The notes below the pieces were generated by a model, which saw only the letters and a list, made by a program, of their open reading frames with translations, did no database searches and had not been told where the DNA came from. DNA of 64,000 bases from Minisyncoccota bacterium. GTDB lineage: Bacteria; Patescibacteriota; Minisyncoccia; Minisyncoccales; RBG-13-42-11. Positions 3,993-57,185 of this stretch are shown here, one piece after another. Position 1 is the first letter of the stretch. Every line of letters starts with the position of its first letter. Made by a program: the position numbers and the translations under genes. Where the stretch lies: assembly GCA_016782605.1 (NCBI GenBank), contig JADHYE010000001.1, positions 11,128 through 75,127 of the forward strand. Reading direction: 5' to 3'.

Positions 3993-5033
3993 TTATTTGA
4001 AATACTTTACCTTAGCCGTATTGTGTTCGTCCAAGGTTTTGCTAAAAATAGTTTCTCCTTCCCTGGTGGAAAGATAATACCAGTAATCGCTATCTTGAAG
4101 ATAAACAGCAGCGATAATGCTTTCAAGTCCAGGATTACAAATCGGACCCAAGGGAAGCCCTTTGTATTTGTAAGTATTGTAGGGAGAATCAATTTCTGTA
4201 CCAGAAGCGATCTCTGATCTCATTTCGTCAAACGTCCAGTTTTCTTTTCCTAAGATATAAGCAATGGTGGCGCAGCTGCGCAAGGGTTCGCTATTCTCAA
4301 TCTTTCCCCAGAAAATGCCAGAAACTATTTTTTTGTCCTCCAAAGTTATTACTTCCTTCTCAAGAATACTAGCCATGGTCACTATTTCAAAAATAGTTTT
4401 GCCTTGTTTCTTAATTTCCTCTCTTAATTCAGAATTCAATTTCTTATCGAAATTAATAAGCATTTTTTCAACAACGCTTTCCATGCTTTCTTTGCTGGTT
4501 TTCTCGTAAGTATCGGGAAAAAGATATCCTTCCAGACTTAAATTCTCAGGCTTATCTCTAAGAAAAGCAAAATCAGCAGAAAAATCTTTTGAAGAAGAAC
4601 CGGTTATCGGAGAACCGACCAATCCAAAAAAATCATCAGCCCCAAATAAACCTTTGCTTTCAAAATAAGAAGCGATATCCCTTAAACTCCATCCTTCAAT
4701 AATAGTGATCTTTTCCTTTATGACATTGCCGGAAAAAAGCTTGTCAGCAATCTGAGGCATATTCATTGAAGGAGACAAAATATATTCTCCTGCTTTTAAA
4801 TAAGAAGCCATTCCCACAGTCAAAACATAAACCCGGAAAACAGGAGACCACCTTATCAATCCCTGATTTTCCAAATTCAAGCCGATGTCCCTTGAACCCT
4901 GACCCTTTTCCACGCTGAAAATAACTTCTTTTTCAGAATTCTGTTCTACGGGCAAAATAACCAGCCAGGAAGCAATCAGAACAATAATAACGACAATAAT
5001 TAAAATTAAAGATTTTTTCACCCCGTATATCAA
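3993..5033 (-). CDS. mltG: endolytic murein transglycosylase MltG (YceG family)
   Basis: 346 aa; N-terminal TM segment; YceG-like sequence. The called TTG start and first four codons (MIYG) lie inside the adjacent repeat element. The true start may be the GTG spanning 5019-5021. Confidence 0.75.
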   Translation of the reverse strand: MIYGVKKSLILIIVVIIVLIASWLVILPVEQNSEKEVIFSVEKGQGSRDIGLNLENQGLIRWSPVFRVYVLTVGMASYLKAGEYILSPSMNMPQIADKLFSGNVIKEKITIIEGWSLRDIASYFESKGLFGADDFFGLVGSPITGSSSKDFSADFAFLRDKPENLSLEGYLFPDTYEKTSKESMESVVEKMLINFDKKLNSELREEIKKQGKTIFEIVTMASILEKEVITLEDKKIVSGIFWGKIENSEPLRSCATIAYILGKENWTFDEMRSEIASGTEIDSPYNTYKYKGLPLGPICNPGLESIIAAVYLQDSDYWYYLSTREGETIFSKTLDEHNTAKVKYFK

Positions 5034-5152
5034 CCTCCAAGCATTTTCAATGCGAAAATATCCTGAAGGCTGTCTTTATTTAATAATATATTCAACATAA
5101 TAACTTTGTTTGAGATTTTAATACGAAGTATTCTGGAAGTTGTATTACGGGG
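5021..5152 (+). mobile_element. Family-1 miniature inverted-repeat element, copy 1 (divergent inverted-repeat ends; flanked by TTCA direct repeats)
   Basis: ccccgtatatcaacctccaa ... ttggaagttgtattacgggg; shared core gcattttcaatgcgaaaa...; fills the pcm-mltG spacer. Confidence 0.8.
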
Positions 5153-5153
5153 T

Positions 5154-5789
5154 TCATTTTTTCAATAAAGGAACGAAAATAAACCCTGGATGTTCTTTTT
5201 CTTCAAAATCAGTTTCGTTCTTTTTAATTAAAAGCCAGATTGAAGAATCAACCGGAGCAACAATCCTGCCTCCGATTTTCAGCTGCTTTTTCCAAGAATC
5301 GGGAATATTAACAGCACTAGCAGATGCTAAAATCTTGTCAAACCCTTCGACAAACTCAGGGTGAGAGGAGATATTGGGATAACCGTTGTTTCCGTCAAGA
5401 CAGAAAAACTGAACAATCCCCTTTTTAACGAAATTATATTTTGAAACGTTTTTCTCGCCAAAGTCCTTCAATTCCTGGATTATATCAAGGGAAATAACCT
5501 TTCCTTTTTTACCGACAATTTCAGCTAACAAAGCGCTGGTCCAGCCAGAGCCTGAACCAACATCCAAAACCTTATCCCCTTCATGCAAATCCAGCAATTC
5601 CATCATAAAAGCAACAACCAAAGGCTGAGAAATGGTCTGGCCGAATCCTATAGGCAAAGCCTCGTTGATCTCTGCTAAATTCTTTGAGTCTTCCGGCAAA
5701 AAATCGCTTCTCTTTATTTTTTTAAAAGCTTCTATCACTTTCGGCGTTTTCAGCCAGTTATCTTTAATTAGCTCTTCAATAAGCGGCAT
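5154..5789 (-). CDS. pcm: protein-L-isoaspartate O-methyltransferase
   Basis: 211 aa; SAM-binding motif LDVGSGSGW. Confidence 0.85.
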   Translation of the reverse strand: MPLIEELIKDNWLKTPKVIEAFKKIKRSDFLPEDSKNLAEINEALPIGFGQTISQPLVVAFMMELLDLHEGDKVLDVGSGSGWTSALLAEIVGKKGKVISLDIIQELKDFGEKNVSKYNFVKKGIVQFFCLDGNNGYPNISSHPEFVEGFDKILASASAVNIPDSWKKQLKIGGRIVAPVDSSIWLLIKKNETDFEEKEHPGFIFVPLLKK

Positions 5790-5790
5790 A

Positions 5791-5860
5791 CTAGGTAGTA
5801 GAAATTCGACAAATTTATTTTTCTTTGCTGCCAGGCAGCAGTCGAATTTTCACTACCTGG
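5791..5860 (+). mobile_element. Family-2 miniature inverted-repeat element, copy A (flanked by CATA repeats)
   Basis: ctaggtagtagaaattcgac ... gtcgaattttcactacctgg inverted-repeat ends; its left end abuts the pcm ATG and the element overlaps the last approximately 15 codons and the stop of def. Confidence 0.75.
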
Positions 5861-10084: not shown

Positions 10085-10091
10085 ATTTTTG

Positions 10092-10163
10092 CGGGGGCGC
10101 CAGGATTCGAACCTAGAACAGAAATTTTGGAGATTCCCATGATAGCCATTTCACCACGCCCCC
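10092..10163 (-). tRNA. tRNA-Trp (anticodon CCA); 3' CCA not encoded
   Basis: revcomp GGGGGCGTGGTGAAATGGCTATCATGGGAATCTCCAAAATTTCTGTTCTAGGTTCGAATCCTGGCGCCCCCG folds as a cloverleaf; anticodon loop CTCCAAA. Confidence 0.8.
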
Positions 10164-10167
10164 GTAT

Positions 10168-12348: not shown

Positions 12349-12420
12349 AGCCTGAGGCCGGGATTGAACCGGCGGCCTCGTCTTTACCAAAGACGTGCTC
12401 TACCAACTGAGCTACCCAGG
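12349..12420 (-). tRNA. tRNA-Thr-like (GGT-type) with an atypical anticodon loop
   Basis: revcomp GCCTGGGTAGCTCAGTTGGTAGAGCACGTCTTGGTAAAGACGAGGCCGCCGGTTCAATCCCGGCCTCAGGCT. The acceptor, D, T and variable arms fold normally. The anticodon arm CGTCT-TGGTAA-AGACG gives a 6-nt loop, or CGTC-TTGGTAAA-GACG an 8-nt loop, instead of the canonical 7. Confidence 0.6.
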
Positions 12421-12432
12421 CAAAAAATAACA

Positions 12433-12517
12433 GTGGGTGTGGTCGGAGTCGAACCGACGGGATCTAATAAGACAGCGGTTTTACAGACCGTTCCCGCCCC
12501 CTACGGGACTACACACC
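12433..12517 (-). tRNA. tRNA-Tyr (anticodon GTA), type II with long variable arm; CCA not encoded
   Basis: revcomp GGGTGTGTAGTCCCGTAGGGGGCGGGAACGGTCTGTAAAACCGCTGTCTTATTAGATCCCGTCGGTTCGACTCCGACCACACCCA. Confidence 0.8.
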
Positions 12518-12690
12518 CTTTTCAGATAATAATCTTTTTGCTCTTTTTAAGTGCTTTGTATTGCCAAATCCGATTTCGTTTATATACCGATGTAAATCTA
12601 ATTAATATATAATTCTATCAATTCATCCTGTTTTTTCTGTTCTTCTTCAATTGTCCATCGTCGAGCCATTATTTAATTTTACTATAAAAA

Positions 12691-13347
12691 TTATAATTTT
12701 CCAATTGATTTGCCGTATTTTCTCCTCCAGGCTTCTATCATTTTGTGATTACCCGAAACCAAAACTTTAGGTACCCGCCATTTCTGGAAAACTTCAGGCC
12801 TGGTGTATTGCGGATATTCCATAAATCCCTTTTCCTTAGTTATCCTTTCTTTCAATAAAGCAGGTTTGCCCAAAACTCCAGGTATTAACCTTGTTATGGT
12901 TTCCATAACTATCATTCCAGGCAACTCCCCTCCCATCAAGTCGTAGTCGCCAACTGACAACTCCATATCAGCAATGTGTTTGGCTACTCTTTCATCAACC
13001 CCTTCATACCGGCCGCAAATCATAATTATCTGGTTTAATTTTGACAACTGATAAGCTGTTTTCTGATTGAATTTCTTTCCCCGGGGAGTAAATAATATGA
13101 CTTTTGTTTTGCCTTTGCCTTTTATCTTTCTAACAGCTTTATATATGGACTCTACCTTCAAAACCATACCCAGCCCTCCGCCAAAAGGCCTATCATCAAC
13201 TGTTTTGCGCTGATCTTTGGCCCAGTCCCTCAAATTATGGACATTTATCTTAATCAATTTCTTTTCCCTGGCTTTCTTAATAAAAGACTCCTTCAGATAA
13301 GAATCGAATATTTGGGGAAAGATTGTAATAATATCAAATTTAAGCAT
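12691..13347 (-). CDS. trmD: tRNA (guanine37-N1)-methyltransferase
   Basis: 218 aa; MLKFDIITIFPQ...; SPOUT-type TrmD motifs. Confidence 0.9.
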   Translation of the reverse strand: MLKFDIITIFPQIFDSYLKESFIKKAREKKLIKINVHNLRDWAKDQRKTVDDRPFGGGLGMVLKVESIYKAVRKIKGKGKTKVILFTPRGKKFNQKTAYQLSKLNQIIMICGRYEGVDERVAKHIADMELSVGDYDLMGGELPGMIVMETITRLIPGVLGKPALLKERITKEKGFMEYPQYTRPEVFQKWRVPKVLVSGNHKMIEAWRRKYGKSIGKL

Positions 13348-13348
13348 A

Positions 13349-13480
13349 CCCTGTATATCAACATCCAGGCATTTTCAATGCGAAAACACCCTGAAGATTG
13401 TCTTTATTTAATAATATATTTAACATAATAACTTTGTTTGAGATTTTAATACGAAGTATTCTGGATGTTGTATTACGGGG
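13349..13480 (+). mobile_element. Family-1 element, copy 2 (flanked by CATA repeats)
   Basis: ccctgtatatcaacatccag ... ctggatgttgtattacgggg; abuts the trmD ATG. Confidence 0.85.
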
Positions 13481-13544
13481 CATAAAAACAAAAACGGCCT
13501 ATTTTGAACAATAGCACCGTTTTTGCACTCTGTAAACTTAGAGT

Positions 13545-13856
13545 TTACAGTTTTAAATCTTCAATAGATTCAGACTTCCTTTCTCTCGTTGGCCTGCCGC
13601 CTTCTGGCTCTTCGATCTTCAAATTCACTCTTGCGTGATTTTTAAGACCGACAATTCTTACCAGATTTCTGATAGATCTGGCGGTAGAACCTTCTTTGCC
13701 GATAATCTGGCCCATGTCTTCAGGGTTCACTTTCAAAGAAAGCAGAACTCCCATCTCGTCAACCGTACGGTCAACTTTAACATCTCCAGGATTGTCGACT
13801 AAAGCTTTAATGAGATATTCAAGGAATTCTTTATCGTTTCCTTTTGTATCAGCCAT
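13545..13856 (-). CDS. KH-domain RNA-binding protein (YlqC/UPF0109-like)
   Basis: 103 aa; GKEGSTARSIRNLV KH motif; sits between rpsP and trmD. Confidence 0.8.
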   Translation of the reverse strand: MADTKGNDKEFLEYLIKALVDNPGDVKVDRTVDEMGVLLSLKVNPEDMGQIIGKEGSTARSIRNLVRIVGLKNHARVNLKIEEPEGGRPTRERKSESIEDLKL

Positions 13857-14447: not shown

Positions 14448-15137
14448 TTACCAATGTTTGACTGCTAAAGCGTTTTTCGCTGCCTCAACTTCTGCTTCTT
14501 GTTTTGAAGATCCTTTGCCTTCGGCCACTAAATCCTTATCAAGGAAAACGCCGATAACGAAATTCTTTGCGTGATCCGGCCCGTGTTCTTTCAAAACTTT
14601 ATAGGTCGGAGTAATGCCCACTCTTTCTTGGGCTGCTTCCTGGAAAGTGGATTTAGCATCCCTGAAAAGACCTTTCTCAATGATTTCCGGCAATTTAACG
14701 ATTAAATTCTTTTTAATGAATTTTTCGCATGCTTTATAGCCTGAATCAAGGTAAGCTGAACCGATAAACGCTTCAAAAGTGTTGGCCAGGATATAATCCC
14801 TTGATTTGCCTGTTTCTTTCATTTCTCCTTTTGAAAGAAGCAAAAAATCATTAAAGCCCAATTCCTTAGCAACCTCAGCAAGCATTTTAGCATTAACCAG
14901 AGAAGCGCGCCAGTTGGTCAATTCGCCTTCCGGCTTTTTGGGATATTTGACAAAAAGGTGTTCGGTAATAATAAGTTCCAAAACCGCATCTCCCAAAAAT
15001 TCCAGTCTTTCATTGTTATCCAGATTGGCTTTCGGATTCTCGTTCAGATAGGAGCGATGGCAAAAAGCCTGAATCAATAAATCCTTGTTTTTGAATTTAA
15101 AATTTAATTGCTTTTCCAATATTGAAAAATCATTCAT
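14448..15137 (-). CDS. rnc: ribonuclease III
   Basis: 229 aa; catalytic signature ERLEFLGDAVLEL; C-terminal dsRBD. Confidence 0.9.
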   Translation of the reverse strand: MNDFSILEKQLNFKFKNKDLLIQAFCHRSYLNENPKANLDNNERLEFLGDAVLELIITEHLFVKYPKKPEGELTNWRASLVNAKMLAEVAKELGFNDFLLLSKGEMKETGKSRDYILANTFEAFIGSAYLDSGYKACEKFIKKNLIVKLPEIIEKGLFRDAKSTFQEAAQERVGITPTYKVLKEHGPDHAKNFVIGVFLDKDLVAEGKGSSKQEAEVEAAKNALAVKHW

Positions 15138-34939: not shown

Positions 34940-36871
34940 CTAAATGTCTAAATTCTTAACGCCTTTGGCATGCGTCTGGATGAATTTCTTTCGGGGCAGC
35001 ACTTCATCTCCCATCAAGATATCGAAAATTCTGTCAGCTTCCTTGACATCTTCAATATCTACCCTTAATAAAGTCCTTTTTTCAGGATTCATGGTGGTTT
35101 CCCAAAGCTGATCCGGATTCATTTCTCCCAAACCCTTGTATCTTTGTATCGAAACATTCAAGATTTTCTCTTTCTTCAATTTCATTAAAACCTTGTCTTT
35201 TTCCTCTTCGGTATATGCATATTCTATCTTTTTGCCTGACTGTAAACGGTAAAGAGGAGGCTGAGCAATATATATGAAGCCTTTTTCAATCAGCAGCTTG
35301 AAATAGCGGTAAAAAAGAGTTAAAAGAAGAGTTCTTATATGGGAACCGTCAACATCAGCATCAGTCATTATAATAATGCGGTGGTATCTGGCCTTTTCAA
35401 TTTTAAAATCATCAGCCACTGCCGTACCCAAAGCAATGATCAATGATTTTATCTCTTTGGAAGAAAGCATCTTGTCCAGACGGGCGCGCTCAACATTCAA
35501 TATCTTTCCCCTTAAAGGCAGAATAGCCTGGAATCTTCTGTCCCTAGCCTGGCGAGAACTGCCGCCAGCTGACTCACCCTCAACTATGTAAAGTTCTGAG
35601 TCTTCGGGATTTCGAGAACTGCAGTCAGCCAATTTGCCCGGCAAAGCCAATCCCTCTAATGCTCCCTTGCGCAAAACAGTCTCACGCGCCACCCTAGCTG
35701 CTTTCCTGGCTTTTGAAGAAAGAATACATTTTTCAATAATCGCCCGGGCATCCTGCGGATTCCTTTCCAAAAAATCAGTCAGGGTTTCCGAAACAACTGC
35801 TTCCACTGCTGTTTTGGCCTCAGGATTACCTAACTTTGCTTTGGTCTGTCCTTCAAATTGCGGCTCTTTGATTTTTACGGAAACCACGCCGGTAAATCCC
35901 TCTCTGACGTCTTCACCCGACAAATTCTCATCGCTTTCTTTAAGAATGCCGTTCTTTTTGGCGTAATCGTTAAAAGTCCTGGTTAAAGCGGTTCTAAAGC
36001 CGGTCAAGTGATTTCCCCCCTCTCCGGTAAAAATGTTATTGGCAAAACTTTCTTCAAAACATTCATATTCTTCAGTATATTGGAAAGCTGCCTCAACCAG
36101 AATTCCTTCTTTTTCCCCGATACCGTAATAGATATTGGGATGGCGCTTAACCACGTCTCTGGTCAGATATTTGACGTATGAAGACAGTCCGCCCTCAAAA
36201 TAAAAAGCGTAGAACTTTTCCGGTTTTTCCCTTTGGTCAATGGCAGTGATTCTTATCTTTTTTGTCAGGTAAGCCTGCTGCCTGAGATGTTTCAGAATCT
36301 TATTAAAATCGAATTTGATTTCGCTGAATATCTCAGGATCCGGTTCAAAGTAAACCGTGGTGCCTGTCTGCCTGCATTTGCCGTCTTTTTTAACGGCTGT
36401 TTTAGGCTTTCCTTTGGCATATTCCTGGCAATACCTAATGTTATCTCGGCAGACTTCAACCCTCATCCATTTTGAAAGCGCGCAGACCACGGAAACTCCC
36501 ACGCCGTGCAAACCGCCAGCCACCTGGTAAGCTTTGCCTCCGAATTTAGCTCCGGCATGCAATGTTGTCATTACGGTTTCCAAAGCTGATTTTTTAGTTT
36601 GCCAGTGCCTTTCAACCGGAATTCCCCTGCCATCGTCAGTTGTCTTCACTTTGTTGCCTGGCGAAAGAATAACTTCAATGTTTTTTGCATGCCCGGCCAT
36701 TGCCTCATCCAAACTGTTATCAATGCATTCCCAAATCAAATGATGAAGTCCCTCTGGACCGGTTGAACCGATATACATGCCGGGCCTTTTCCTGACAGGA
36801 TCAAGGCCTTCCAAAACATAAATGTCTTTGGCAGTATAATCTTTTTCAGTTTTTTTAGGTTTTTGTAGCAT
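34940..36871 (-). CDS. gyrB: DNA gyrase subunit B
   Basis: The GHKL ATPase, TOPRIM and C-terminal gyrase B domains are present. The start is taken at MLQKPKK (36869-36871). The track's MVLEVDIRG extension comes from the adjacent repeat element. Confidence 0.9.
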   Translation of the reverse strand: MLQKPKKTEKDYTAKDIYVLEGLDPVRKRPGMYIGSTGPEGLHHLIWECIDNSLDEAMAGHAKNIEVILSPGNKVKTTDDGRGIPVERHWQTKKSALETVMTTLHAGAKFGGKAYQVAGGLHGVGVSVVCALSKWMRVEVCRDNIRYCQEYAKGKPKTAVKKDGKCRQTGTTVYFEPDPEIFSEIKFDFNKILKHLRQQAYLTKKIRITAIDQREKPEKFYAFYFEGGLSSYVKYLTRDVVKRHPNIYYGIGEKEGILVEAAFQYTEEYECFEESFANNIFTGEGGNHLTGFRTALTRTFNDYAKKNGILKESDENLSGEDVREGFTGVVSVKIKEPQFEGQTKAKLGNPEAKTAVEAVVSETLTDFLERNPQDARAIIEKCILSSKARKAARVARETVLRKGALEGLALPGKLADCSSRNPEDSELYIVEGESAGGSSRQARDRRFQAILPLRGKILNVERARLDKMLSSKEIKSLIIALGTAVADDFKIEKARYHRIIIMTDADVDGSHIRTLLLTLFYRYFKLLIEKGFIYIAQPPLYRLQSGKKIEYAYTEEEKDKVLMKLKKEKILNVSIQRYKGLGEMNPDQLWETTMNPEKRTLLRVDIEDVKEADRIFDILMGDEVLPRKKFIQTHAKGVKNLDI

Positions 36872-36872
36872 A

Positions 36873-37019
36873 CCCCGTATATCAACTTCCAGAACCAAAC
36901 GCCGTTAGGTGCGTTTTAGCCTGTAAGCGGTTATTTGATAATAATTTCATATTTACAACCATTTGAGTTATGCCCGGCGTTTGTTTAGAACGCACCTTAC
37001 TGGAAGTTGTATTACGGGG
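36873..37019 (+). mobile_element. Family-1b element (copy 3): Family-1 inverted-repeat ends with an unrelated palindromic core
   Basis: ccccgtatatcaacttccag ... ctggaagttgtattacgggg; the core has its own inverted repeat (aaacgccg..ggtgcgtt / aacgcacc..cggcgttt); left flank cata, right flank catt. Confidence 0.75.
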
Positions 37020-37031
37020 CATTTTTTAAAA

Positions 37032-40981: not shown

Positions 40982-41059
40982 TGGCGGACCCGACCGGATT
41001 TGAACCGGCGATCTCCTTCGTGACAGGAAGGCGTGTTAACCAGGCTACACTACAGGTCC
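40982..41059 (-). tRNA. tRNA-Asp (anticodon GTC), CCA encoded
   Basis: revcomp GGACCTGTAGTGTAGCCTGGTTAACACGCCTTCCTGTCACGAAGGAGATCGCCGGTTCAAATCCGGTCGGGTCCGCCA. Confidence 0.85.
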
Positions 41060-41060
41060 G

Positions 41061-41136
41061 TGGTGCCGAGGGTGAGAGTTGAACTCACGACCCCTGCCTT
41101 ATGAAGGCATTGCTCTAACCACTGAGCTACCCCGGC
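41061..41136 (-). tRNA. tRNA-Met (anticodon CAT), elongator type (G1-C72 paired), CCA encoded
   Basis: revcomp GCCGGGGTAGCTCAGTGGTTAGAGCAATGCCTTCATAAGGCAGGGGTCGTGAGTTCAACTCTCACCCTCGGCACCA. Confidence 0.8.
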
Positions 41137-41144
41137 TAATGTTG

Positions 41145-41215
41145 TTGCGGGGGCCGGAATTGCACCGGCGTCTCGAGGTTATGGGCCTCGCAAGGTACTA
41201 CTCCTCCACCCCGCG
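41145..41215 (-). tRNA. initiator tRNA-fMet (anticodon CAT) with C1-A72 mismatch; C at position 33; CCA not encoded
   Basis: revcomp CGCGGGGTGGAGGAGTAGTACCTTGCGAGGCCCATAACCTCGAGACGCCGGTGCAATTCCGGCCCCCGCAA; close to E. coli tRNA-fMet at the acceptor and T arms. Confidence 0.75.
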
Positions 41216-41258: not shown

Positions 41259-41789
41259 CTAAAAAGCATCCAAATCTCTAAGCGCTTTCTCATAAATGCC
41301 CAGTGCCTTTTTAGTCTCATCCAAAGTTAACTTGTAATCAGGATCGCGAACAATATTGTTGCGAATCTGGTGTGCTTCTTTTAACTCTTCGATATTGGAA
41401 AGAGTGGCGACGGTTAGCTTTTCCAAGCTCTCTTCTAAAGAAGCGCCTCCGTACCCCATCTTTTTCAAAATATCATTCATTGTATTGTCCGCTTCAATAA
41501 CCGTTAACTTGTATTCCGATTCCAAACCAGTATCTAATCTAGCAAGAATCTTCCGCCAATCCCTTTCCATTCTTTTTACGCCAAAAGGCTTGTATCTGAA
41601 GAATTCAGCTGCGTCATAAAGAACATACATTCTCAGCCAAGAAGACTTAAAAAGCGCGAAAATTATGAAGCCCACTGCAAATACGCCAAAAACCATAAAA
41701 GCTATCTTTAAATAGAAAAGCAAATCGTCAAAAGCGGCGGAAGAAAAAAACGGCATGAAACTATTTGTAAATCCTTCAATTATTTCCAT
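41259..41789 (-). CDS. hypothetical membrane protein
   Basis: 176 aa; two TM helices; the ATG is flush with Family-1 copy 4. Confidence 0.4.
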   Translation of the reverse strand: MEIIEGFTNSFMPFFSSAAFDDLLFYLKIAFMVFGVFAVGFIIFALFKSSWLRMYVLYDAAEFFRYKPFGVKRMERDWRKILARLDTGLESEYKLTVIEADNTMNDILKKMGYGGASLEESLEKLTVATLSNIEELKEAHQIRNNIVRDPDYKLTLDETKKALGIYEKALRDLDAF

Positions 41790-41790
41790 A

Positions 41791-41922
41791 CCCCGTATAT
41801 CAACATCCAGGCATTTTCAATGCGAAAACACCCTGAAGATTGTCTTTATTTAATAATATATTCAACATAATAACTTTGTTTGAGATTTTAATACGAAGTA
41901 TTCTGGATGTTGTATTACAAGG
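41791..41922 (+). mobile_element. Family-1 element, copy 4 (flanked by CATA; variant right end ..ttacaagg)
   Basis: its terminal 8 bp supply the last codon and TAA stop of gatA. Confidence 0.85.
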
Positions 41923-43345
41923 CATATAATTTTGATATTTCTAAAATTTTATCTTCTTCGAACGGCTTGCCGATTATCTGAAGTCCGACAGGAAGATTGT
42001 CTATCTTACCGACAGGCAAGGAAACAGCCGGCAATCCAGCCAAACTGACAGGACCGGTAAAAACATCGCAAAGATACATTTGAAGCGGGTCTTTAATCTT
42101 TTCTCCGAGCTTGAAAGCCGGAGTCGGCGCAACGGGTGTCATTAAAACGTCTACCTTTTTAAACGCCTTTTCAAAATCCTGTCTTACCAAAGTCCTTACT
42201 TTCTGGGCTTTCAAATAATAAGCGTCGTAATAACCGCTGGACAAAGCATATGTTCCCAAAATAATCCTGCGGCGTACCTCGTCTCCCAATCCCCTGCCCC
42301 TTGAACGCAAATAAACTTCCATTAAATCATTACTGCTTTTGTCCTGGTGTCCGTATTTTATGCCATCGTATCTTGCCAAATTAGCAGAAATCTCACAAGG
42401 CATAATTATGTAATAAGTAGCTATAGCGTAATCAGTATGAGGTAAACTTACTTCCATTATCTTTGCGCCCATTGCCTCGTATTTCTTTATCGCCTCTTTC
42501 ACTATTTTTTCCACTTCCTTATCAACTTCTTTGACAAAATATTCTTTGGGAACGCCTATTTTCAAGCCCTTGATTTTCAATCCATTGTTTTCAACCCTCA
42601 TATCAACCGAAGTTGAATCCATCTGATCTTTGCCCCTTATTACATCAAAAACAATCTTGCAGTCATCTATATTCTTGGTTAAAGGCCCTATCTGGTCAAG
42701 AGAAGAAGCCATAGCAATCAGTCCGAAGCGGGAAACTGCGCCGTAAGTCGGCCTTAACCCGACCACTCCGCAAAGAGAAGCAGGGTAACGTATCGAACCA
42801 GCTGTATCAGAACCCAAAGCGTAAACTGCCATGTCTGCGGCAACAGCAGCTGCTGAACCAGATGAAGAGCCGCCTGTTACCCTGGTTAAATCGCAAGGAT
42901 TCTTTGTCGGACCGAAGGCTGAATTCTCTCCGGAAGCTCCCATGGCAAACTCATCCAAATTGGTTTTTCCCAAAATAACCGCCTTTTCCTTTTTCAATTT
43001 CCTGACAACCGTAGCCTCATAAAGAGCAACGTAGTTTTCTAAAATCTTTGAAGCAGCCGTACACTTCAACCCTTCAACCATAATATTGTCTTTTACAGCG
43101 CAAGGAATGCCTGCCAGAACCGGTATGTTCTCGCCTCTCTTGATTATATCATCAACTTCTTCTGCTTGCTTTAAAGCTGTTTCCTCGATAACGGACAAAA
43201 AAGCAAAAATGTCTTTGTCTTTTTCCCTTATCTTTTCCAGATAAGCTTTGCACAATTCAACAGATGAGAACTCTTTGTTGACTAATCCTTGATGCGCCTG
43301 AGCAATGGTTAGATCCTGTATCTTCACCCCGTTAGAAGTTTGCAT
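41915..43345 (-). CDS. gatA: Glu-tRNA(Gln) amidotransferase subunit A
   Basis: Amidase signature is present. The first 6 codons (MQTSNG) fall inside the left inverted-repeat end of the element at 43327-43455, and the last codon plus stop fall inside Family-1 copy 4. Confidence 0.9.
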   Translation of the reverse strand: MQTSNGVKIQDLTIAQAHQGLVNKEFSSVELCKAYLEKIREKDKDIFAFLSVIEETALKQAEEVDDIIKRGENIPVLAGIPCAVKDNIMVEGLKCTAASKILENYVALYEATVVRKLKKEKAVILGKTNLDEFAMGASGENSAFGPTKNPCDLTRVTGGSSSGSAAAVAADMAVYALGSDTAGSIRYPASLCGVVGLRPTYGAVSRFGLIAMASSLDQIGPLTKNIDDCKIVFDVIRGKDQMDSTSVDMRVENNGLKIKGLKIGVPKEYFVKEVDKEVEKIVKEAIKKYEAMGAKIMEVSLPHTDYAIATYYIIMPCEISANLARYDGIKYGHQDKSSNDLMEVYLRSRGRGLGDEVRRRIILGTYALSSGYYDAYYLKAQKVRTLVRQDFEKAFKKVDVLMTPVAPTPAFKLGEKIKDPLQMYLCDVFTGPVSLAGLPAVSLPVGKIDNLPVGLQIIGKPFEEDKILEISKLYAL

Positions 43346-46035: not shown

Positions 46036-47112
46036 TTAAAATAATCTGGCAACGTCTTTTATCGTCACCAAAACCATTAATAAAAGTAATAAACTGAAAA
46101 ATACAGCTGTTATGTTCTGCTCCACTTTTTCGCTAATCGGCCTTCTCCTGATAGCTTCAATCCCCAGAAATAATATCTTGCCTCCGTCAACTGCTGGAAT
46201 GGGCAGAATATTGAAAATAGCGATATAAATGGCCACTATGCCGACAAATTGCAGAAAATAATTCGTTCCCATCTGGCTAGCCTGAGTAAAAAGATGAACG
46301 ACCCCTACCGGACCCATCAGTTCAACTCCCGAAGACTGGCCTTGAACAATATTGCTTATCACTTGGCCGTAACCTTTAATTATTGCTCCTGTCATATTAA
46401 CCGTTGCCACCAATCCCTGCCAAGGAGCCTGGTACCAGGAAAAAGACTGCATTGCTGTTCTGACTAAAGCTACGCCCAAAGGACCTTCTCCTGCTGGCGG
46501 CGAAACTCGAGGTACGACTTTGACGTCAAAAACTTCATTCCCCCTTTCAACCGTCAAAACAATCTCTTCTCCTAAATGAGTATTACTGAACTCCTGCACT
46601 TCCCGTATTTTACCAACAGCCAATTGCTCCTCGCTAATTGCCATTCCTTTTATCGTATCCCCAGGTTGTAAGCCAGCAAGTTTTGCCGGAGAGCCAGCAG
46701 AAATGCTAGCAATCTGCACTCTTGGATTAACTAAACCAGAAGCTTCATCGTCTACAGCCACTGCTGTTCCTAAATTGAAAACAATAGCAAATAGAATTGC
46801 TGCCACTATCCAAAAAGAAAGCACTCCGGCAAAAGCAATTAAAGCCCTTTTCCAGACAGCCTGACCTGAAAAACTGCGAGGGTCATTTACCTGACCTATT
46901 TCGCCCGGCATTTTTACGAAAGCACCTAGGGGCAGAAGATTTAAAGAATAAATAGTATCGCCAATTTTTTTTCCGAATATCCTGGGAGGGAAACCTATGC
47001 CAAATTCTTCAACTTTTACTCCGAATTTCTTTGCTACGATAAAATGGCCGAATTCGTGAAGAGTTACTAGCCCTATTAAGCTTAAAGAAGCGATAAGAAT
47101 TGTTAAAAACAT
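46036..47112 (-). CDS. rseP: site-2 protease RseP (M50 family)
   Basis: HEFGHFIVAKKFGV HExxH motif, PDZ segment, multi-TM. Confidence 0.8.
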   Translation of the reverse strand: MFLTILIASLSLIGLVTLHEFGHFIVAKKFGVKVEEFGIGFPPRIFGKKIGDTIYSLNLLPLGAFVKMPGEIGQVNDPRSFSGQAVWKRALIAFAGVLSFWIVAAILFAIVFNLGTAVAVDDEASGLVNPRVQIASISAGSPAKLAGLQPGDTIKGMAISEEQLAVGKIREVQEFSNTHLGEEIVLTVERGNEVFDVKVVPRVSPPAGEGPLGVALVRTAMQSFSWYQAPWQGLVATVNMTGAIIKGYGQVISNIVQGQSSGVELMGPVGVVHLFTQASQMGTNYFLQFVGIVAIYIAIFNILPIPAVDGGKILFLGIEAIRRRPISEKVEQNITAVFFSLLLLLMVLVTIKDVARLF

Positions 47113-47113
47113 A

Positions 47114-47245
47114 CCCTGTATATCAACATCCAGGCATTTTCAATGCGAAAACACCCTGAAGATTGTCTTTATTTAATAATATATTTAACATAATAACTTT
47201 GTTTGAGATTTTAATACGAAGTATTCTGGATGTTGTATCACGGGG
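47114..47245 (+). mobile_element. Family-1 element, copy 5 (flanked by CATA)
   Basis: abuts the rseP ATG and fills the frr-rseP spacer. Confidence 0.85.
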
Positions 47246-47249
47246 CATA

Positions 47250-47810
47250 TTATTCTGATATTTCTTTTTTCTTATTCTCTCCCATTTCTTCTATCTTTTT
47301 ATTGTAATCGTCAACCAACTCCTGAAGCTCGTCTTTAGCCCGGAACTTGTCATCCTCCCTGATTTCTCCCTGTTTTGTTTTATCCTGGATTTCACTCCAA
47401 ACCTCTTCCCTCCACTTTCTAATAGTCCTTCTTGACTGTTCTTCTTTTTCCGCAATGGTCCTGGTTAAATTCTTCCTGTATTCTTCGTTCAAAGGCGGCA
47501 AATTAATCCTGACTGCATCCTTGTCAACAATTGGATTAGCGCCGATTCCCGTCTTTTCCAAAGCTGAAACAATGCCTTCGATATAAGACTTATCCCAAGG
47601 CTGAATTAAAATCTGCTTTGCCTCAGGTGTAGAAATGGCAGCCAATTGTTTTAAAGGAAACTTCTGGCCGAAACAGTCAACAACAACATCCTCCACCAAA
47701 GAAGGCGTTGCCCTGCTGGTACGAATCTTATTCATTTCCTTTTCTAAAAAGCCGATTACCTTGTCTAATTCCGGTTTAATATTTTGAATGATTGTTTTGT
47801 AGCTATCCAT
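47250..47810 (-). CDS. frr: ribosome recycling factor
   Basis: 186 aa RRF-like. Confidence 0.9.
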   Translation of the reverse strand: MDSYKTIIQNIKPELDKVIGFLEKEMNKIRTSRATPSLVEDVVVDCFGQKFPLKQLAAISTPEAKQILIQPWDKSYIEGIVSALEKTGIGANPIVDKDAVRINLPPLNEEYRKNLTRTIAEKEEQSRRTIRKWREEVWSEIQDKTKQGEIREDDKFRAKDELQELVDDYNKKIEEMGENKKKEISE

Positions 47811-47811
47811 A

Positions 47812-47943
47812 CCCTGTGTATCAACATCCAGGCATTTTCAATGCGAAAACATCCTGAAGATTGTTTTTATTTAATAATATATTTAACATAATAACTTTGT
47901 TTGAGATTTTAATACGAAGTATTCTGGATGTTGTATTACGGGG
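47812..47943 (+). mobile_element. Family-1 element, copy 6 (flanked by CATA)
   Basis: abuts the frr ATG and fills the holB-frr spacer. Confidence 0.85.
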
Positions 47944-47951
47944 CATAAAAA

Positions 47952-48842
47952 TTACATTTCCATTACCAGTCTTTCCAGAGCCAATCTGGCGTTAACATTG
48001 GTCTGGGCAAGCAGTAATTTTGTCGTTTGAATTAGATTAATAATATTTTTTAATTTATCAGCTGAATAACTTTTAAAGCTAATATCGGAATTGCCAGAAG
48101 AAAAACGGGCAAGCAGAATGTCCCTGAAATAATTAAGCCAGACATCCAGGGTTTTTTGCGTTTCTATCGGCTCTTCGCTCAAATCTTTTACGTACTGGAA
48201 ACGGGAATAAAGCATTGATTTTGAAAGATTTTTAACTTCTTCTATTTTTTTCTTGAACGCTCCAACCGCTTTTTTATCGGAAACGAAATCCATAACCAGT
48301 CCCGGTTTCCCAGAAGAAATGGAAGAAAGCTCTTCTGCCTCTTTTTTCAAAAACCCTTTGTCTAATAGATAGCGATTGATTTCTTCTTCTTTGACCGGAT
48401 TAAACTTTACAACCTGAACGCGGGAAAGAATGGTCGGTAAAAGATAATGTATTTTGTCGCTGATTAAGATTAAAACGCTGTCACCCCTCGGCTCTTCCAA
48501 TGTTTTTAAAAGCGCTGTCTGTGCCTCCTGATTCATTAAGTGGGCATTATCTATAACAGCTGCTTTCACCGAATTAAAAGAGCTTTTAAGCGAAAATCTG
48601 CGAATCAAATCCCTTATCTGGGAAATCTTTATCTCTTTTTCCTCAGGCGTAACAAGAACAAAATCTGGATGATTGCCAAAATCCTTACTGACTTTATCGC
48701 CAAAAAGCAGCGAAACCCATTGTAAAGCCAAAGTCCTTTTCCCTAATTTTTCGGAACCGGCAAATAAATAAGCGTGGGAAAAAGTCTTAGTCTCAGCCAA
48801 TTTTTTCAAAAGATTCCATTGTTTTTGGTGTCCGACCAACAT
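47952..48842 (-). CDS. holB: DNA polymerase III delta-prime subunit
   Basis: 296 aa; AAA+ clamp-loader N-terminus HAYLFAGSEKLGKRTLA. Confidence 0.65.
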   Translation of the reverse strand: MLVGHQKQWNLLKKLAETKTFSHAYLFAGSEKLGKRTLALQWVSLLFGDKVSKDFGNHPDFVLVTPEEKEIKISQIRDLIRRFSLKSSFNSVKAAVIDNAHLMNQEAQTALLKTLEEPRGDSVLILISDKIHYLLPTILSRVQVVKFNPVKEEEINRYLLDKGFLKKEAEELSSISSGKPGLVMDFVSDKKAVGAFKKKIEEVKNLSKSMLYSRFQYVKDLSEEPIETQKTLDVWLNYFRDILLARFSSGNSDISFKSYSADKLKNIINLIQTTKLLLAQTNVNARLALERLVMEM

Positions 48843-51129: not shown

Positions 51130-51134
51130 ACTGC

Positions 51135-52192: not shown

Positions 52193-52264
52193 CCAGGTAG
52201 TGAAAATTCAACCACTGCCGCGGCAGTGAAAAAAATAATAATTTGTCGAATTTCTACTACCTAG
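52193..52264 (-). mobile_element. Family-2 element, copy C, inverted relative to copies A and B and abutting a plus-strand gene (flanked by TATG)
   Basis: ccaggtagtgaaaattcaac cactgccgcggcagtg ... tcgaatttctactacctag; the ATG at 52266. Confidence 0.75.
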
Positions 52265-52265
52265 T

Positions 52266-54269: not shown

Positions 54270-54739
54270 TGAGGAGCACGACGAGCGCGCTTCAATCCGA
54301 ACTTCTTTCTTTCCCTCATCCTCGGGTCTCTTTTCAAAAAACCAGCTTTTTTCAACTGTTTCCTCAATTCTGGATCGAATAAAACTAAAGCGCGAGTTAA
54401 ACCGTGCCTGACAGCTTCAGCCTGGGAAGTCGTCCCTCCCCCTTTAACTTTTACTGAAACCTGAAATTTGTCAGAATAATCAGTCAAAATCAAAGGAGAA
54501 AAAATAATACGCTGAAGGTATTTTGTCGGAAAATAATTTTCAAAAGTCCTTGTATTTATTAAAAAGGTCTTTTCTTTTTGAACAGAAATTCTCACCCTGG
54601 CTACAGCTGTCTTTCTCCTGCCTATGCCCTCAAAATACCTGGCTACTTTAGGTTTAACTGTTACTTTGGCAGTTTTTTTAGCTGGAGCTTTTTTGACTTT
54701 CTTTACTGTTTCTTTTTTTGTTTTTTTAGCCTTTGGCAT
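54254..54739 (-). CDS. rpsI: 30S ribosomal protein S9 with lysine-rich N-terminal extension
   Basis: C-terminal GGGTTSQAEAVRHGL..KKFGLKRARRAPQWQKR; start taken at MPKAKK; the track's MDVDIRG extension is derived from the repeat element. Confidence 0.9.
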   Translation of the reverse strand: MPKAKKTKKETVKKVKKAPAKKTAKVTVKPKVARYFEGIGRRKTAVARVRISVQKEKTFLINTRTFENYFPTKYLQRIIFSPLILTDYSDKFQVSVKVKGGGTTSQAEAVRHGLTRALVLFDPELRKQLKKAGFLKRDPRMRERKKFGLKRARRAPQWQKR

Positions 54740-54740
54740 A

Positions 54741-54872
54741 CCCCGTATATCAACATCCAAGCATTTTCAATGCGAAAACACTCTGAAGGCTGTTTTTATT
54801 TAATAATATATTCAACATAATAACTTTGTTTGATATTTTAATACGAAGTATTCTGGATGTTGTATTACAGGG
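54741..54872 (+). mobile_element. Family-1 element, copy 7 (flanked by CATA; variant right end ..ttacaggg)
   Basis: abuts the rpsI ATG; its last 8 bp supply the final codon and TAA stop of rplM. Confidence 0.85.
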
Positions 54873-55215
54873 CATATTTTAATCTTTTAATCATTTTTGC
54901 TCTTAATTTATTCTTGGGCAGCATGCCAAAAACCGCTTTCCTCAAAACTTCTTCCGGATTCTTCTCAAATAACTTCTCCAAAGTTATCTCCTTCAAGCTT
55001 CCCAGATATCCAGAATGACGGTAGTATTTCTTCTGTTTGGCTTTTTTGCCGGTGAATTTCAACTTATCAACGTTTTGGACAATAACAACATCGCCGATAT
55101 CTTTGTACGGCGCAAAGTCTGCTTTCTGTTTCCCCCTCAAAAGCAAAGCTATTTCAACAGCCAGTCTGCCTAAAACCTTATCAGTAGCGTCTATTTTGTG
55201 GGTTTTGCGTTCCAT
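54865..55215 (-). CDS. rplM: 50S ribosomal protein L13
   Basis: 116 aa L13-like. Confidence 0.85.
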   Translation of the reverse strand: MERKTHKIDATDKVLGRLAVEIALLLRGKQKADFAPYKDIGDVVIVQNVDKLKFTGKKAKQKKYYRHSGYLGSLKEITLEKLFEKNPEEVLRKAVFGMLPKNKLRAKMIKRLKYAL

Positions 55216-55217
55216 AG

Positions 55218-55568
55218 TTATTTAACCAATTCTATTATGGCTATTTTGGCAGCATCTACTTTTCTTTGGCCAAGCTTAATAATCCTGGTATATCCTCCTT
55301 TTCTTTCTTTGAATCTCGGGGCGATCTCATCAACCAATTTCTTAACCACTTTTCCAGTAAAAAACTTTGCCAATAATCTGCGCGAAGCCAAAGTGCCGAC
55401 TTTCGCTTTGGTAATCTTTTTTTCAACGAAAGAGGAAACCTCTTTTGCCTTAGCTTCTGTTGTTTTAACTTTTTCTTTCAATATCAAAGCAGCAGCTAAA
55501 GATCTTAAAAGAGCGTTTCTTTGGTCTTTTTCCCTATTTAGTTTTTTCCCTTTTTTTCTTTTTCTCAT
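55218..55568 (-). CDS. rplQ: 50S ribosomal protein L17
   Basis: MRKRKKGKKLNREKDQRNALLRSL.. Confidence 0.85.
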   Translation of the reverse strand: MRKRKKGKKLNREKDQRNALLRSLAAALILKEKVKTTEAKAKEVSSFVEKKITKAKVGTLASRRLLAKFFTGKVVKKLVDEIAPRFKERKGGYTRIIKLGQRKVDAAKIAIIELVK

Positions 55569-56364
55569 TTTTTACTTTTTTGCTTACTGCTTTCTTTTCT
55601 TTTTTCGGCTTCTTGGCCGCTTTTTTCTTTTCTTTGTCTTCCGGTTCTACAGATGCAGCTTTCGGCTGGAAAGCTGTAGCCAGCAACGAAAAGTGGCTAA
55701 TCAAAATTTCCGAAGCCTGATAAAATGCCTGTTCCGGATCGATAATGCCGTCTGTTTCAATTTCCAGAAACAATCTGTCAAAGTCAGTTCTTTCTCCGAC
55801 ACGCATATTCTCAACCCTGGAACTTACCCTTTTTACAGGAGTAAAGCTGGCATCCAGCAGAATAGCTCCTATCTCTAATTTTTCAGGCATGGAGCCTGCT
55901 GTTTTTTTCCTTGTTTCGCGGCTGGAATAGCCAATTCCCTTTTCAATCTGGATTTCCATTTCCAGTTCAGCGGATTTTGAATTCAAAGTGGCAATATGGC
56001 AGTTTTTATTTACCAATTCCACTTGGCTGGGCAGCTTGAAATCAAAGCCCTTCACTGCTTTTTCTCCCTTAACTTTCAGGGTCGCTTTCTGTGGCTCGTC
56101 GCTAAAAAGCTTAAATCTCAATTGCTTCAAATTAAGCATTATAGTGATAACGTCTTCTAAAACTCCTGAAATCGTTGAGAACTCATGGGAAACTCCCTTG
56201 ATTTTGACTTGGGTAATAGCAGCTCCTTCAAGCGAAGAAAGCAAAACCCTTCTCAAAGAATTGCCGACGGTTACTCCGTAGCCAGGACGCAAAGCTTCTA
56301 TTTCAAAAACAGCTTTGTTCCCTTCTTTTTTAACTATTTTGGGAGCGTGAGGTAAATTAATCAT
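55534..56364 (-). CDS. rpoA: RNA polymerase alpha subunit (N-terminal domain plus lysine-rich tail; no recognisable alpha-CTD)
   Basis: 276 aa; alpha-NTD motifs; C-terminal KEKKKAAKKPKKEKK..; overlaps rplQ by 35 nt. Confidence 0.85.
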   Translation of the reverse strand: MINLPHAPKIVKKEGNKAVFEIEALRPGYGVTVGNSLRRVLLSSLEGAAITQVKIKGVSHEFSTISGVLEDVITIMLNLKQLRFKLFSDEPQKATLKVKGEKAVKGFDFKLPSQVELVNKNCHIATLNSKSAELEMEIQIEKGIGYSSRETRKKTAGSMPEKLEIGAILLDASFTPVKRVSSRVENMRVGERTDFDRLFLEIETDGIIDPEQAFYQASEILISHFSLLATAFQPKAASVEPEDKEKKKAAKKPKKEKKAVSKKVKNEKKKKREKTK

Positions 56365-56433
56365 ATAGCGAGTCCCGCAACAACGGGACGAAGGTTAAGA
56401 AGAGGATGAATTCCTCTTCGATTTATTTTGAGT
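56365..56433 (+). repeat. Family-3 hairpin-pair element filling the rpsD-rpoA spacer
   Basis: atagcgagtcccgcaacaacgggacgaaggttaagaagaggatgaattcctcttcgatttattttgag; starts right after the rpoA ATG and contains the rpsD stop. Confidence 0.7.
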
Positions 56434-57052
56434 AAAACTCGAAAATTGCGGAGAGTTCTGCCGGTGGGACAGCCTCTTCTAAATTTGGTGAATCGATGAC
56501 CTTTGCCTCCAGCTTCTCAGCGTCTAATTTGAGCCAAGACGGAGGATTATATTTTTTTAAAGTAGATGATAATTTCTGGAAAATTGTTTTTTTTAAAGAA
56601 TTGGGGTTAACGCTTATTTTGTCCCCTTTCTTAACCAGATAGCTGGAAATATTAATCGGCCTGTCGTTAACCATAAGATGGCTGTGGGAAACCATTTGTC
56701 TGGCAGCAAATTTGGAAGGAGCGAAACCTAATCTGAAAACTACATTGTCCAAGCGGCTCTCCAAAGTTTTAATTAAAGCAGCGCCGGCATCCGTCACCTT
56801 TCCCCTGGCCTTTAAAATATCTTTGACGTAGTTCCTGAATTGCTTCTCTTCCAAATTATACCAGTTCTTTAATTTTTGTTTTTCCCTTAATTCTTTACCG
56901 TATTCAGAAAGCGATTTCACTCTTTTTTTAGCTTTTGGCCCTGGCGGATAAGGTTTTTTGATCATTGGGCATTTCTGCGATGAGCACCTTTCGCCTCTCA
57001 AAAAAAGCTTAATTCCTGCACGACGGCAAATTTTGCATTTAGAAACATTCAT
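56423..57052 (-). CDS. rpsD: 30S ribosomal protein S4
   Basis: 209 aa; N-terminal zinc ribbon CKICRR..C..C; S4 domain. Confidence 0.9.
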   Translation of the reverse strand: MNVSKCKICRRAGIKLFLRGERCSSQKCPMIKKPYPPGPKAKKRVKSLSEYGKELREKQKLKNWYNLEEKQFRNYVKDILKARGKVTDAGAALIKTLESRLDNVVFRLGFAPSKFAARQMVSHSHLMVNDRPINISSYLVKKGDKISVNPNSLKKTIFQKLSSTLKKYNPPSWLKLDAEKLEAKVIDSPNLEEAVPPAELSAIFEFYSK

Positions 57053-57053
57053 A

Positions 57054-57185
57054 CCCTGTATATCAACATCCAGGCATTTTCAATGCGAAAATATCCTGAA
57101 GGCTGTCTTTATTTAATAATATATTTAACATAATAACTTTGTTTGATATTTTAATACGAAGTATTCTGGATGTTGTATTACAAGG
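57054..57185 (+). mobile_element. Family-1 element, copy 8 (flanked by CATA; right end ..ttacaagg)
   Basis: abuts the rpsD ATG and fills the rpsK-rpsD spacer. Confidence 0.85.

Follow-up and report, generated by a model that had tools for sequence, protein, structure and literature searches.

The subject of this analysis is a short repeat that occurs eight times within a 64,000-nt stretch of the genome of a Minisyncoccota bacterium (contig JADHYE010000001.1); this whole stretch is termed here the window. A first-pass annotation, made from the letters of the window, had described a near-identical element in eight copies, and both the coordinates and the near-identity are borne out. A search with the 21-mer at the element's left end (allowing up to three mismatches) matches exactly at 5021, 13349, 36873, 41791, 47114, 47812, 54741 and 57054, always on the plus strand, and finds no match in 100 shuffled sequences; the alignment comprises seven copies of 132 bp, which share 92.4-99.2% pairwise identity (mean 94.5%), and one 147-bp variant (36873-37019). 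The neighbouring genes all lie on the minus strand. Pfam upholds the names previously given to them: those downstream of the copies are YceG/mltG, trmD, gyrB, a 176-aa open reading frame (ORF) without assignment, M50/rseP, frr, rpsI and rpsD; those upstream are pcm, khpA, pheT, gatA, frr, holB, rplM and rpsK; and an rnc gene does lie within the window (14448-15137, minus strand).

Position and anatomy of the window copies

The termini of the element are 20-bp inverted repeats, each composed of 7 bp, a fixed 3 x 3 mismatch and 10 bp, and the window copies carry the subterminal hairpins GCATT-TTC-AATGC and AATAC-TTC-GTATT. Inverted-repeat ends of about 20 bp and hairpins with a TTC loop had both been proposed and are both present, but the element is not the single long palindrome that had been supposed: its interior consists instead of the subterminal hairpins and a 41-codon ORF. 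Read on the gene strand, every copy has the layout ...TATG, CCCNGTAATACAAC(A/T)TCCAG ... CTGGA(A/T)GTTGATATACNGGG, TATG-gene. Direct repeats of 4 bp, which contain the start codon and which the first-pass annotation missed, thus flank the element at all eight window copies; CATA on the plus strand corresponds to TATG on the gene strand. At seven of the eight the TATG repeat includes the host start codon, while the eighth (at 5021) lies within an ATGA stop/start overlap and has the repeat TTCA on the plus strand, that is, TGAA on the gene strand. The copies had been placed upstream of the genes named above; the neighbours are correct, but the copies sit on the start codon itself, which is duplicated as TATG. 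With their flanking repeats, and with the upstream open reading frame (uORF) where listed, they are as follows.

Copy 1, 5017..5156, minus strand: 132-bp element at 5021-5152; repeats TTCA at 5017-5020 and 5153-5156; between the pcm stop and the mltG start.
Copy 2, 13345..13484, minus strand: element at 13349-13480; CATA at 13345-13348 and 13481-13484; the ATG at 13345-13347 is the trmD start; uORF of 41 codons at 13358-13483, minus strand, from the upstream ATG to a TGA in the 3' inverted repeat.
Copy 3, 36869..37023, minus strand: 147-bp variant at 36873-37019; CATA at 36869-36872 and CATT at 37020-37023; gyrB start downstream; uORF of 46 codons at 36882-37022, minus strand.
Copy 4, 41787..41926, minus strand: element at 41791-41922; TATG repeats; the ATG is the start of the 176-aa ORF (orf176); uORF at 41800-41925.
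Copy 5, 47110..47249, minus strand: element at 47114-47245; TATG repeats; frr/rseP junction; the ATG is the rseP start; uORF at 47123-47248.
Copy 6, 47808..47947, minus strand: element at 47812-47943; TATG repeats; holB/frr junction; the ATG is the frr start; uORF at 47821-47946.
Copy 7, 54737..54876, minus strand: element at 54741-54872; TATG repeats; rplM/rpsI junction; uORF at 54750-54875.
Copy 8, 57050..57189, minus strand: element at 57054-57185; TATG repeats; rpsK/rpsD junction; the ATG is the rpsD start; uORF at 57063-57188.

All seven 132-bp copies and the variant retain the uORF (of 41 or 46 codons), which begins at the upstream ATG and ends at a TGA that belongs to the 3' repeat and precedes the host ATG by 11 nt. 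Frame 0 remains open for 41 codons within an AT-rich interior, in which the other two frames have three stops each. A lookup of the consensus uORF peptide for further loci of the same genome returned no record. Several copies have altered the genes that they adjoin. At copy 1 the ATG of mltG is lost, and a GTG start (5019-5021) is formed from the last G of the element and the adjacent TG. At copies 4 and 7 the upstream genes gatA and rplM now end at a TAA that comes from the 5' arm of the element (at 41915-41917 and 54865-54867, respectively); in both cases the next start codon had originally fallen within the 3'-terminal part of the gene. The rplM product, which ends in ..KYAKG* in the relative L164 (introduced below), here ends in ..KYAL*.

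Other features of the window are as follows. Directly upstream of the first ATG of copy 2, in the khpA-trmD gap, lies a terminator-like hairpin (13485-13545; AAAAACGG...CCGTTTTTG, followed by a run of T). Six tRNA genes occur on the minus strand, at 10092-10163, 12349-12518 and 40985-41215, the last of these being a cluster of three just downstream of orf176. Leaders in the window are A/T-rich, and no obvious Shine-Dalgarno-like motifs precede the genes inspected.

Empty sites, distribution and target choice

By its frr protein, the organism is a 'Candidatus Pacebacteria' (Parcubacteria) MAG (metagenome-assembled genome). Two syntenic relatives, L163 and L164 (whose frr proteins are 95% and 89% identical to the window's frr), were aligned with the window at the rplM-rpsI, holB-frr, frr-rseP, gatA-orf176 and pheT-gyrB junctions, and L163 also at rpsK-rpsD. 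At none of the junctions aligned is there room for the element between the genes. At four of them the relatives' sequence is homologous to that of the window minus the element and minus one TATG, with a single TATG at the junction; the rplM-rpsI junction reads GTATG in both relatives; and at pheT-gyrB the window has the upstream repeat AATG where the relatives have TATG. Because syntenic relatives that lack the element carry a single target at these junctions, the window copies are real insertions, made after the split from these close relatives. The empty sites support the earlier description of a mobile, non-coding and recently spread repeat bounded by terminal inverted repeats (TIRs), which lies within essential operons without disrupting their genes.

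Other assemblies of the same organism also carry the copies. In two of these, L160 (1552-1677 and 1739-2317) and L161 (same coordinates), the 41-aa uORF is annotated as a gene and rpsD is called 17 codons short (192 versus 209 aa). A third, L162, begins 52 nt upstream of rpsI, inside the element; the repeat therefore also breaks assemblies.

Two findings had been named in advance as ones that would overturn the idea of a mobile repeat, namely a match to a known structured RNA and confinement of the copies to this region, and neither was obtained. At the Rfam gathering threshold only tRNAs pass in the whole window, and with an E-value threshold on 47050-48010 only noise appears (the best E-value on the element region being about 5-7); no Rfam family thus matches the element, which moreover is absent from the orthologous junctions of the relatives, and it does not qualify as a known structured RNA. 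As for confinement, copies occur in other genomes and in metagenomes. Collections containing one genome per species, when searched with a pattern of both termini, yield 29 loci, all within metagenome-assembled genomes (MAGs) and almost all labelled Patescibacteria (Saccharibacteria, Parcubacteria, Terry-, Portnoy-, Curtiss- and Liptonbacteria), the lineage also termed the Candidate Phyla Radiation (CPR). A metagenome scan with the left end yields at least 120 stretches; counts for metagenomes rest on the matches listed. A scan of viral contigs gave 85 exact 16-mer matches, among which there is no real element. About 100 further distinct copies, from some 20 CPR MAGs and the metagenome matches listed, were analysed. 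The 147-bp copy 3 belongs to a subfamily of 147-150 bp that is present in many other CPR genomes.

One MAG labelled Gammaproteobacteria (CAZGDX01) has four copies (L005, L006, L022 and L028), two of them with the TIR variant of the window, CAACATCCAG. The nearest named relatives of its aminotransferase-malate dehydrogenase fusion (the one protein checked) are CPR and DPANN, and its taxonomic label looks doubtful.

The flanks of these further copies resemble those of the window: TATG/TATG in 68 of the approximately 100 copies listed and xATG in most others. Perfect repeats of non-canonical sequence (TGAA, TAAG, TTTA, TAAT, TAAA and ATGA) were also found; the 4-bp duplication therefore derives from the target. 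In 89 of 104 copies an ORF starts directly after the element; the few others adjoin a stop codon or precede a start by a few bases. From one genome to another, the genes targeted have no functional relationship. Nearly all of the roughly 100 copies point the same way with respect to the gene, and start-codon position together with this orientation holds for about 90% of them. The common chromosomal orientation pointed out previously holds within the window, but the orientation that holds elsewhere is the one relative to the target gene.

Three observations touch on these sites. About 70% of the predicted gene starts in the window (46 of 66) read TATG, i.e., have T at position -1. At L074 (59-657, minus strand of the locus) a tandem array contains one full-length 309-bp copy and two 141-bp copies with a single TATG between each; every insertion recreates a TATG at the edge of an existing copy, and this serves as target for new copies. 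At L040 (1026-1244) a decayed 219-bp copy has the two asymmetric trinucleotides of the TIR mismatch swapped relative to its ORF remnant and TATG flanks, the sole such case among the approximately 100 copies.

A full-length form that encodes a predicted GIY-YIG nuclease

The metagenome copies include, in addition to those of 120-158 bp, a longer form of 309-318 bp that shares their termini and TATG flanks. Lengths of the longer form are almost all multiples of three, and 25 of 27 full-length copies (22 distinct sequences) contain an intact single ORF of 100-103 codons, which runs from the upstream ATG to the same TGA, 12 nt from the end of the element and 11 nt before the host ATG. This ORF has no start codon of its own and uses the upstream ATG of the duplication. 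Moreover, the TIRs lie inside it: codons 2-8 are the 5' repeat, and the last three codons, the TGA and nine further bases are the 3' repeat. The family thus is a mobile one with TIRs and a target duplication, the complete form of which is a 312-bp nuclease ORF lacking a start codon.

The assignment of the encoded protein rests on profile, fold and conserved residues. Three independent full-length ORFs match PF01541 (GIY-YIG) with E = 4.3e-16 (59 bits versus a cut-off of 22.6), and the UPF0213 structure 1ZG2 is matched in the PDB with E = 4e-8. An AlphaFold2 model (pLDDT, the predicted local distance difference test, of 76) has the GIY-YIG fold, with strands or helices at E11-18, E24-29, H32-41, E53-61 and H64-74; residues 1-7 and 97-101, which the TIRs encode, are disordered in it. 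Among solved structures the closest are BH0048 and EF2693, both UPF0213 proteins, together with Slx1 (the top Foldseek matches being 1ZG2 and Slx1). Among 45 sequences Y14, Y25, R35 and E71 are invariant and G27 is at least 90% conserved. In each of these respects the full-length relatives, the window copies not included, belong to the Slx1/UPF0213 branch of the GIY-YIG superfamily, and the product of the full-length ORF is a predicted GIY-YIG nuclease. Stand-alone proteins of that branch (COG2827, YhbQ-type) have the same minimal fold and motifs (best matches 1ZG2, 1YWL and Slx1), but are treated as housekeeping proteins or as proteins of unknown function, unlike the mobile TIR-type family; Slx1 itself cleaves branched DNA in a structure-specific manner.

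The nuclease ORF is under strong purifying selection: the pairwise ratio of nonsynonymous to synonymous substitution (dN/dS) is 0.107, with synonymous sites near saturation (proportion of synonymous differences, pS, 0.65). At 90% identity, at least 680 clusters are present in the protein database. Almost all have 100-102 aa, begin with MPxNTTS and end in GxGS; their annotation reads only 'GIY-YIG nuclease family protein' or, erroneously, 'excinuclease ABC subunit C'. Together they form one tight clade, a single 50%-identity cluster among approximately 9,100 small GIY-YIG representatives. A sister family (P0246 at L252, 523-842; also L253 and L254) encodes a 98-aa protein starting MPGSENSS... 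and has different 20-bp TIRs, CCCGGTAGTGAAAATTCAAG and CTTGAATTTCTACTACCGGG, with the same terminal heptamer CCCNGTA/TACNGGG, the same central mismatch and TATG flanks, and the same position on a downstream start codon; its stop codon lies just before the 3' TIR. There are hints that other small GIY-YIG clades may also encode termini within the ORF. Of the nearest 149 representatives in the wider family (P0241-P0389), 17 end in ...LTG and 13 start with MP, and at P0304 (L251) a 16-nt inverted repeat overlaps both ends of the ORF.

A tblastn search of the window for GIY-YIG proteins found no nuclease ORF. Given this and the shared ends, the window copies are deletion derivatives of the full-length form; decayed intermediates of 212-243 bp exist, and the uORF of copy 3, which reads MPRNTTSS...AFGSGS*, consists of the N- and C-terminal ends of the nuclease ORF. 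The short copies accordingly have the attributes of miniature inverted-repeat transposable elements (MITEs), i.e., TIRs, a 4-bp duplication, no enzyme gene and a longer coding element with the same ends. The MITE label applied to them earlier was right in kind, but the coding relatives with the same termini are 312-bp GIY-YIG elements and belong to no known insertion sequence (IS) or MITE family.

Selection also acts on the nucleic acid. Synonymous positions of the nuclease ORF are frozen only at the TIR codons (2-8 and 103-105) and at two complementary pairs of internal segments: TTCTTC (codons 11-12) with GAAGAA (39-40), and GATGCCAAACGC (codons 68-71) with GCGTTTGGC (99-101). The TIR arms pair in 97.6% of cells, six pairs having changed on both sides, and none of 500 shuffles reaches the observed values; both ends are conserved in non-coding copies too. 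Most copies also contain a hairpin, immediately 5' of the 3' TIR, that compensatory changes preserve (e.g., CAAACGCC/GGCGTTTG, GACCCCGCC/GGCGGGGTC, GATCCCGC/GCGGGATC and AGACGCC/GGCGTCT). Termini and internal stems are thus under nucleotide-level, structure-like constraint. Predicted RNA folds are significantly stable (z of -3.8 to -4.4); that of the full-length form contains the TIR stem and two internal stems, and the stem extends into a pairing of AUG#1 with UAU.

Proposed mechanism, alternatives and significance

The window repeats are probably non-autonomous, MITE-like derivatives of a Patescibacteria (CPR) GIY-YIG element of about 312 bp, which are mobilised by its nuclease, itself expressed via host start codons. 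The element would insert at T-ATG in one orientation, with a 4-bp target duplication, such that the original host ATG, together with its promoter and initiation region, would become the start of the nuclease, while the duplicated ATG would restart the host gene 11 nt after the nuclease TGA. The nuclease may recognise either the conserved CCCNGTA...TACNGGG ends or the folded hairpins and would make the DNA breaks that mobilise full-length and short copies alike, with fill-in and ligation presumably left to host enzymes. Ribosomes arriving from the original ATG would translate the element, unfolding it, and after terminating at the TGA would reinitiate at the ATG next to it, which would keep the host gene expressed; in the window the segment translated in this way would be the uORF of 41 or 46 codons. 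Occupancy of start codons might then reflect a cleavage preference for T-ATG combined with selection at two levels: on the element, in that the nuclease would be expressed only from copies directly behind a working ATG, and by the host, in that only translated hairpins at a gene boundary would be harmless. On this evidence the repeats most likely belong to a new family of mini-transposons driven by a GIY-YIG nuclease, one whose members rely on host signals for initiation and return the ribosomes through reinitiation. Such neutralisation of harm has parallels among Rickettsia palindromic elements, mitochondrial byp elements, IStrons, inteins and group I introns, all of which likewise invade essential genes or operons and leave the host product intact; here, however, the start codon is duplicated and translational coupling is probable, without in-frame translation, splicing or bypassing.

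Several points weigh against this interpretation. The window has 46 TATG sites at starts, about 43 that are intergenic without being starts and 258 within coding sequence; inasmuch as intergenic non-start sites are about as numerous as start sites, a preference for TATG combined with the purging of coding insertions would predict that only about half of the copies lie on start codons. The target logo contains no information beyond T-A-T-G, and an extended target motif, tried as a candidate, was rejected for that reason. Neither these site counts nor the logo explains the start-codon placement of the short copies. The repeat, furthermore, comprises only the 3-bp ATG in about nine copies and differs at its first base in about ten. 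No nuclease-coding copy with the window's own TIR variant (CAACATCCAG) was found. No known GIY-YIG enzyme carries out transposition, and a hydrolytic nuclease by itself explains neither the joining nor the 4-bp duplication. Most short families from other sources than the window have a uORF that ends prematurely within the element, so that termination and reinitiation at the TGA cannot be the general route of host-gene expression; within the window, a test for selection on the uORF based on substitution patterns gave P = 0.35, though it lacked power. Finally, the minimum free energies of sense and antisense strands contradict each other as to which strand folds, the 3' hairpin indicating one and the whole element the other.

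An unlikely alternative, and yet the one that survives best, is that the element is a free-standing homing endonuclease gene, whose nuclease would cut empty T-ATG sites and which would be copied by break repair, via homology between cells where the locus is shared and via microhomology where it is new, with the TIRs and hairpins serving expression or RNA stability. GIY-YIG is a classical homing-endonuclease fold, and a given insertion recurs at its locus across many samples. Free-standing GIY-YIG homing genes (the seg genes of phage T4, and I-TevI and I-BmoI in introns) are likewise selfish, have a GIY-YIG nuclease as sole product and are tightly packed at gene edges; the terminal pentamer CCCNG presumably fits the I-TevI cleavage motif CNNNG. 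Many homing endonucleases occur in the rRNA introns of CPR bacteria (PMC11270868). Homing, however, uses one long specific site, makes no target duplication and needs long flanking homology, whereas here unrelated loci share only 4 bp, 4-bp repeats covary with the target, 20-bp TIRs are present and many unrelated loci are occupied per genome. Short copies without coding capacity have spread to seven loci, and both ends covary and are conserved in such non-coding copies. The protein, unlike those of homing genes, is a bare catalytic domain of 101 aa from the Slx1/UPF0213 branch, with no DNA-binding module, and its ORF has no start codon of its own.

Quite unlikely is an ordinary MITE mobilised in trans by a classical transposase encoded elsewhere (a DDE enzyme with 4-bp duplications, such as those of IS5, IS701 or IS1380-like elements), with the GIY-YIG ORF as a passenger or a captured host repair gene. 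In its favour, TIRs combined with a target-site duplication are the hallmark of DDE transposition; staggered strand transfer fits the perfect duplications of targets other than the canonical one; and GIY-YIG enzymes are not known to be transposases. Yet in none of the 29 genome loci or the 120 metagenome matches listed do these termini enclose a longer element that encodes a classical transposase: all pairs are at most 318 bp apart (additional single-end matches in the loci and in the window are chance matches), and the only ORF is that of the GIY-YIG protein rather than a DDE, DEDD, HUH, Ser or Tyr transposase. A passenger gene would hardly be expected to contain the TIRs and to lack a start of its own, as the nuclease ORF does; this ORF is under strong purifying selection and travels with the ends in hundreds of clusters; in the sister family nuclease and TIRs have diverged together; and symmetric DDE transpososomes seldom show strict orientation to a 4-bp target that is not a palindrome. 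Among known small elements, the Correia elements of Neisseria and other bacterial MITEs are likewise 100-160 bp long, with TIRs, target duplications and many gene-adjacent copies, and are likewise co-transcribed and fold into long hairpins, those of Correia RNA being cut by RNase III; here, by contrast, the duplication is TATG rather than TA, insertion is in one orientation on a start codon, the parent with coding capacity is not an IS with a DDE transposase but a GIY-YIG element of 312 bp, and there is no sequence similarity. Elements of the IS200/IS605 and PATE types are likewise very small, with subterminal hairpins kept by structure and a strictly oriented tetranucleotide target, but these are the only resemblances: they have a Y1 HUH TnpA, no TIRs and no duplication, whereas here there are a GIY-YIG protein, long TIRs and a true duplication that covaries with the target.

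It is highly unlikely that the copies are now host regulatory parts (structured leaders with a uORF, or RNase III processing sites, kept for their function), for although the predicted RNA hairpins are stable at the z-scores given above, with the first AUG and part of the second paired together, rnc is present in the window, frame 0 is open for its 41 codons against three stops in each other frame, and the copies precede translation-related genes, relatives with frr proteins 89-95% identical keep the same operons without copies at all junctions compared (the copies therefore being recent and dispensable), target genes elsewhere are functionally unrelated, no Rfam family matches and the selection test on the uORF was without power.

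Five narrower models were also considered. A universally conserved uORF was rejected, since outside a few families the lengths of short copies are not multiples of three and most contain early stops. An outward promoter at the 3' end (TGATATACT, extended -10-like) was rejected as well: the hexamer ends in A or G in the window copies and stands too close to the ATG, and a scan gave one weak site versus 3.5 expected. An IS200/IS605-type model, in which the right-hand TATG is part of the element, fails because non-canonical repeats covary, and a similarity to integron attC sites was set aside because the copies lie among housekeeping genes and not in cassette arrays. A cohesive-end restriction-ligation model is a possibility that explains orientation and precise excision, but not the perfect non-TATG duplications. 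None of the three broader alternatives explains the architecture of TIRs within the ORF as well as mobilisation by the element's own GIY-YIG nuclease does.

The full-text literature searched, from which most subscription journals are absent so that a prior description is not fully excludable, contains no description of such an element, work on GIY-YIG phylogenomics, on insertions in CPR rRNA genes and on gene transfer in Patescibacteria included, and it contains no report of mobile UPF0213/Slx1-like proteins. A broader proposition, for and against which the case seems evenly balanced, is that it represents an unrecognised class of prokaryotic transposable element: its sole enzyme would be a GIY-YIG nuclease of 101 aa; no autonomous mobile DNA smaller than this one, of about 312 bp, would be known; its ORF, lacking a start codon, would be completed on host start codons, parasitising host promoter and ribosome-binding signals and returning the ribosome by reinitiation; its ends and internal stems would be read in folded form by a structure-specific, Slx1-like nuclease, and the combination of this nuclease with host repair would be a new chemistry of transposition; and the small UPF0213 GIY-YIG proteins may largely be such elements or their domesticated descendants.

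If the nuclease does drive mobility, then GIY-YIG would become the sixth enzyme class in prokaryotic transposition, and the element would set a new lower size limit for self-contained mobile DNA. It would also illustrate a new way of invading essential operons harmlessly, in which the start codon is duplicated and translation captured without splicing or in-frame reading, and it would provide a concrete, testable function for the widespread small UPF0213/Slx1-like proteins. A 100-aa nuclease with an oriented 4-bp target and defined DNA ends could, in addition, interest those who build molecular tools. For CPR genomics, these elements break assemblies, yield spurious 41-aa genes and wrong start calls, and alter the C-termini of rplM and gatA; and, being polymorphic between close strains, they are usable as strain markers and as natural reporters of reinitiation in uncultured bacteria.

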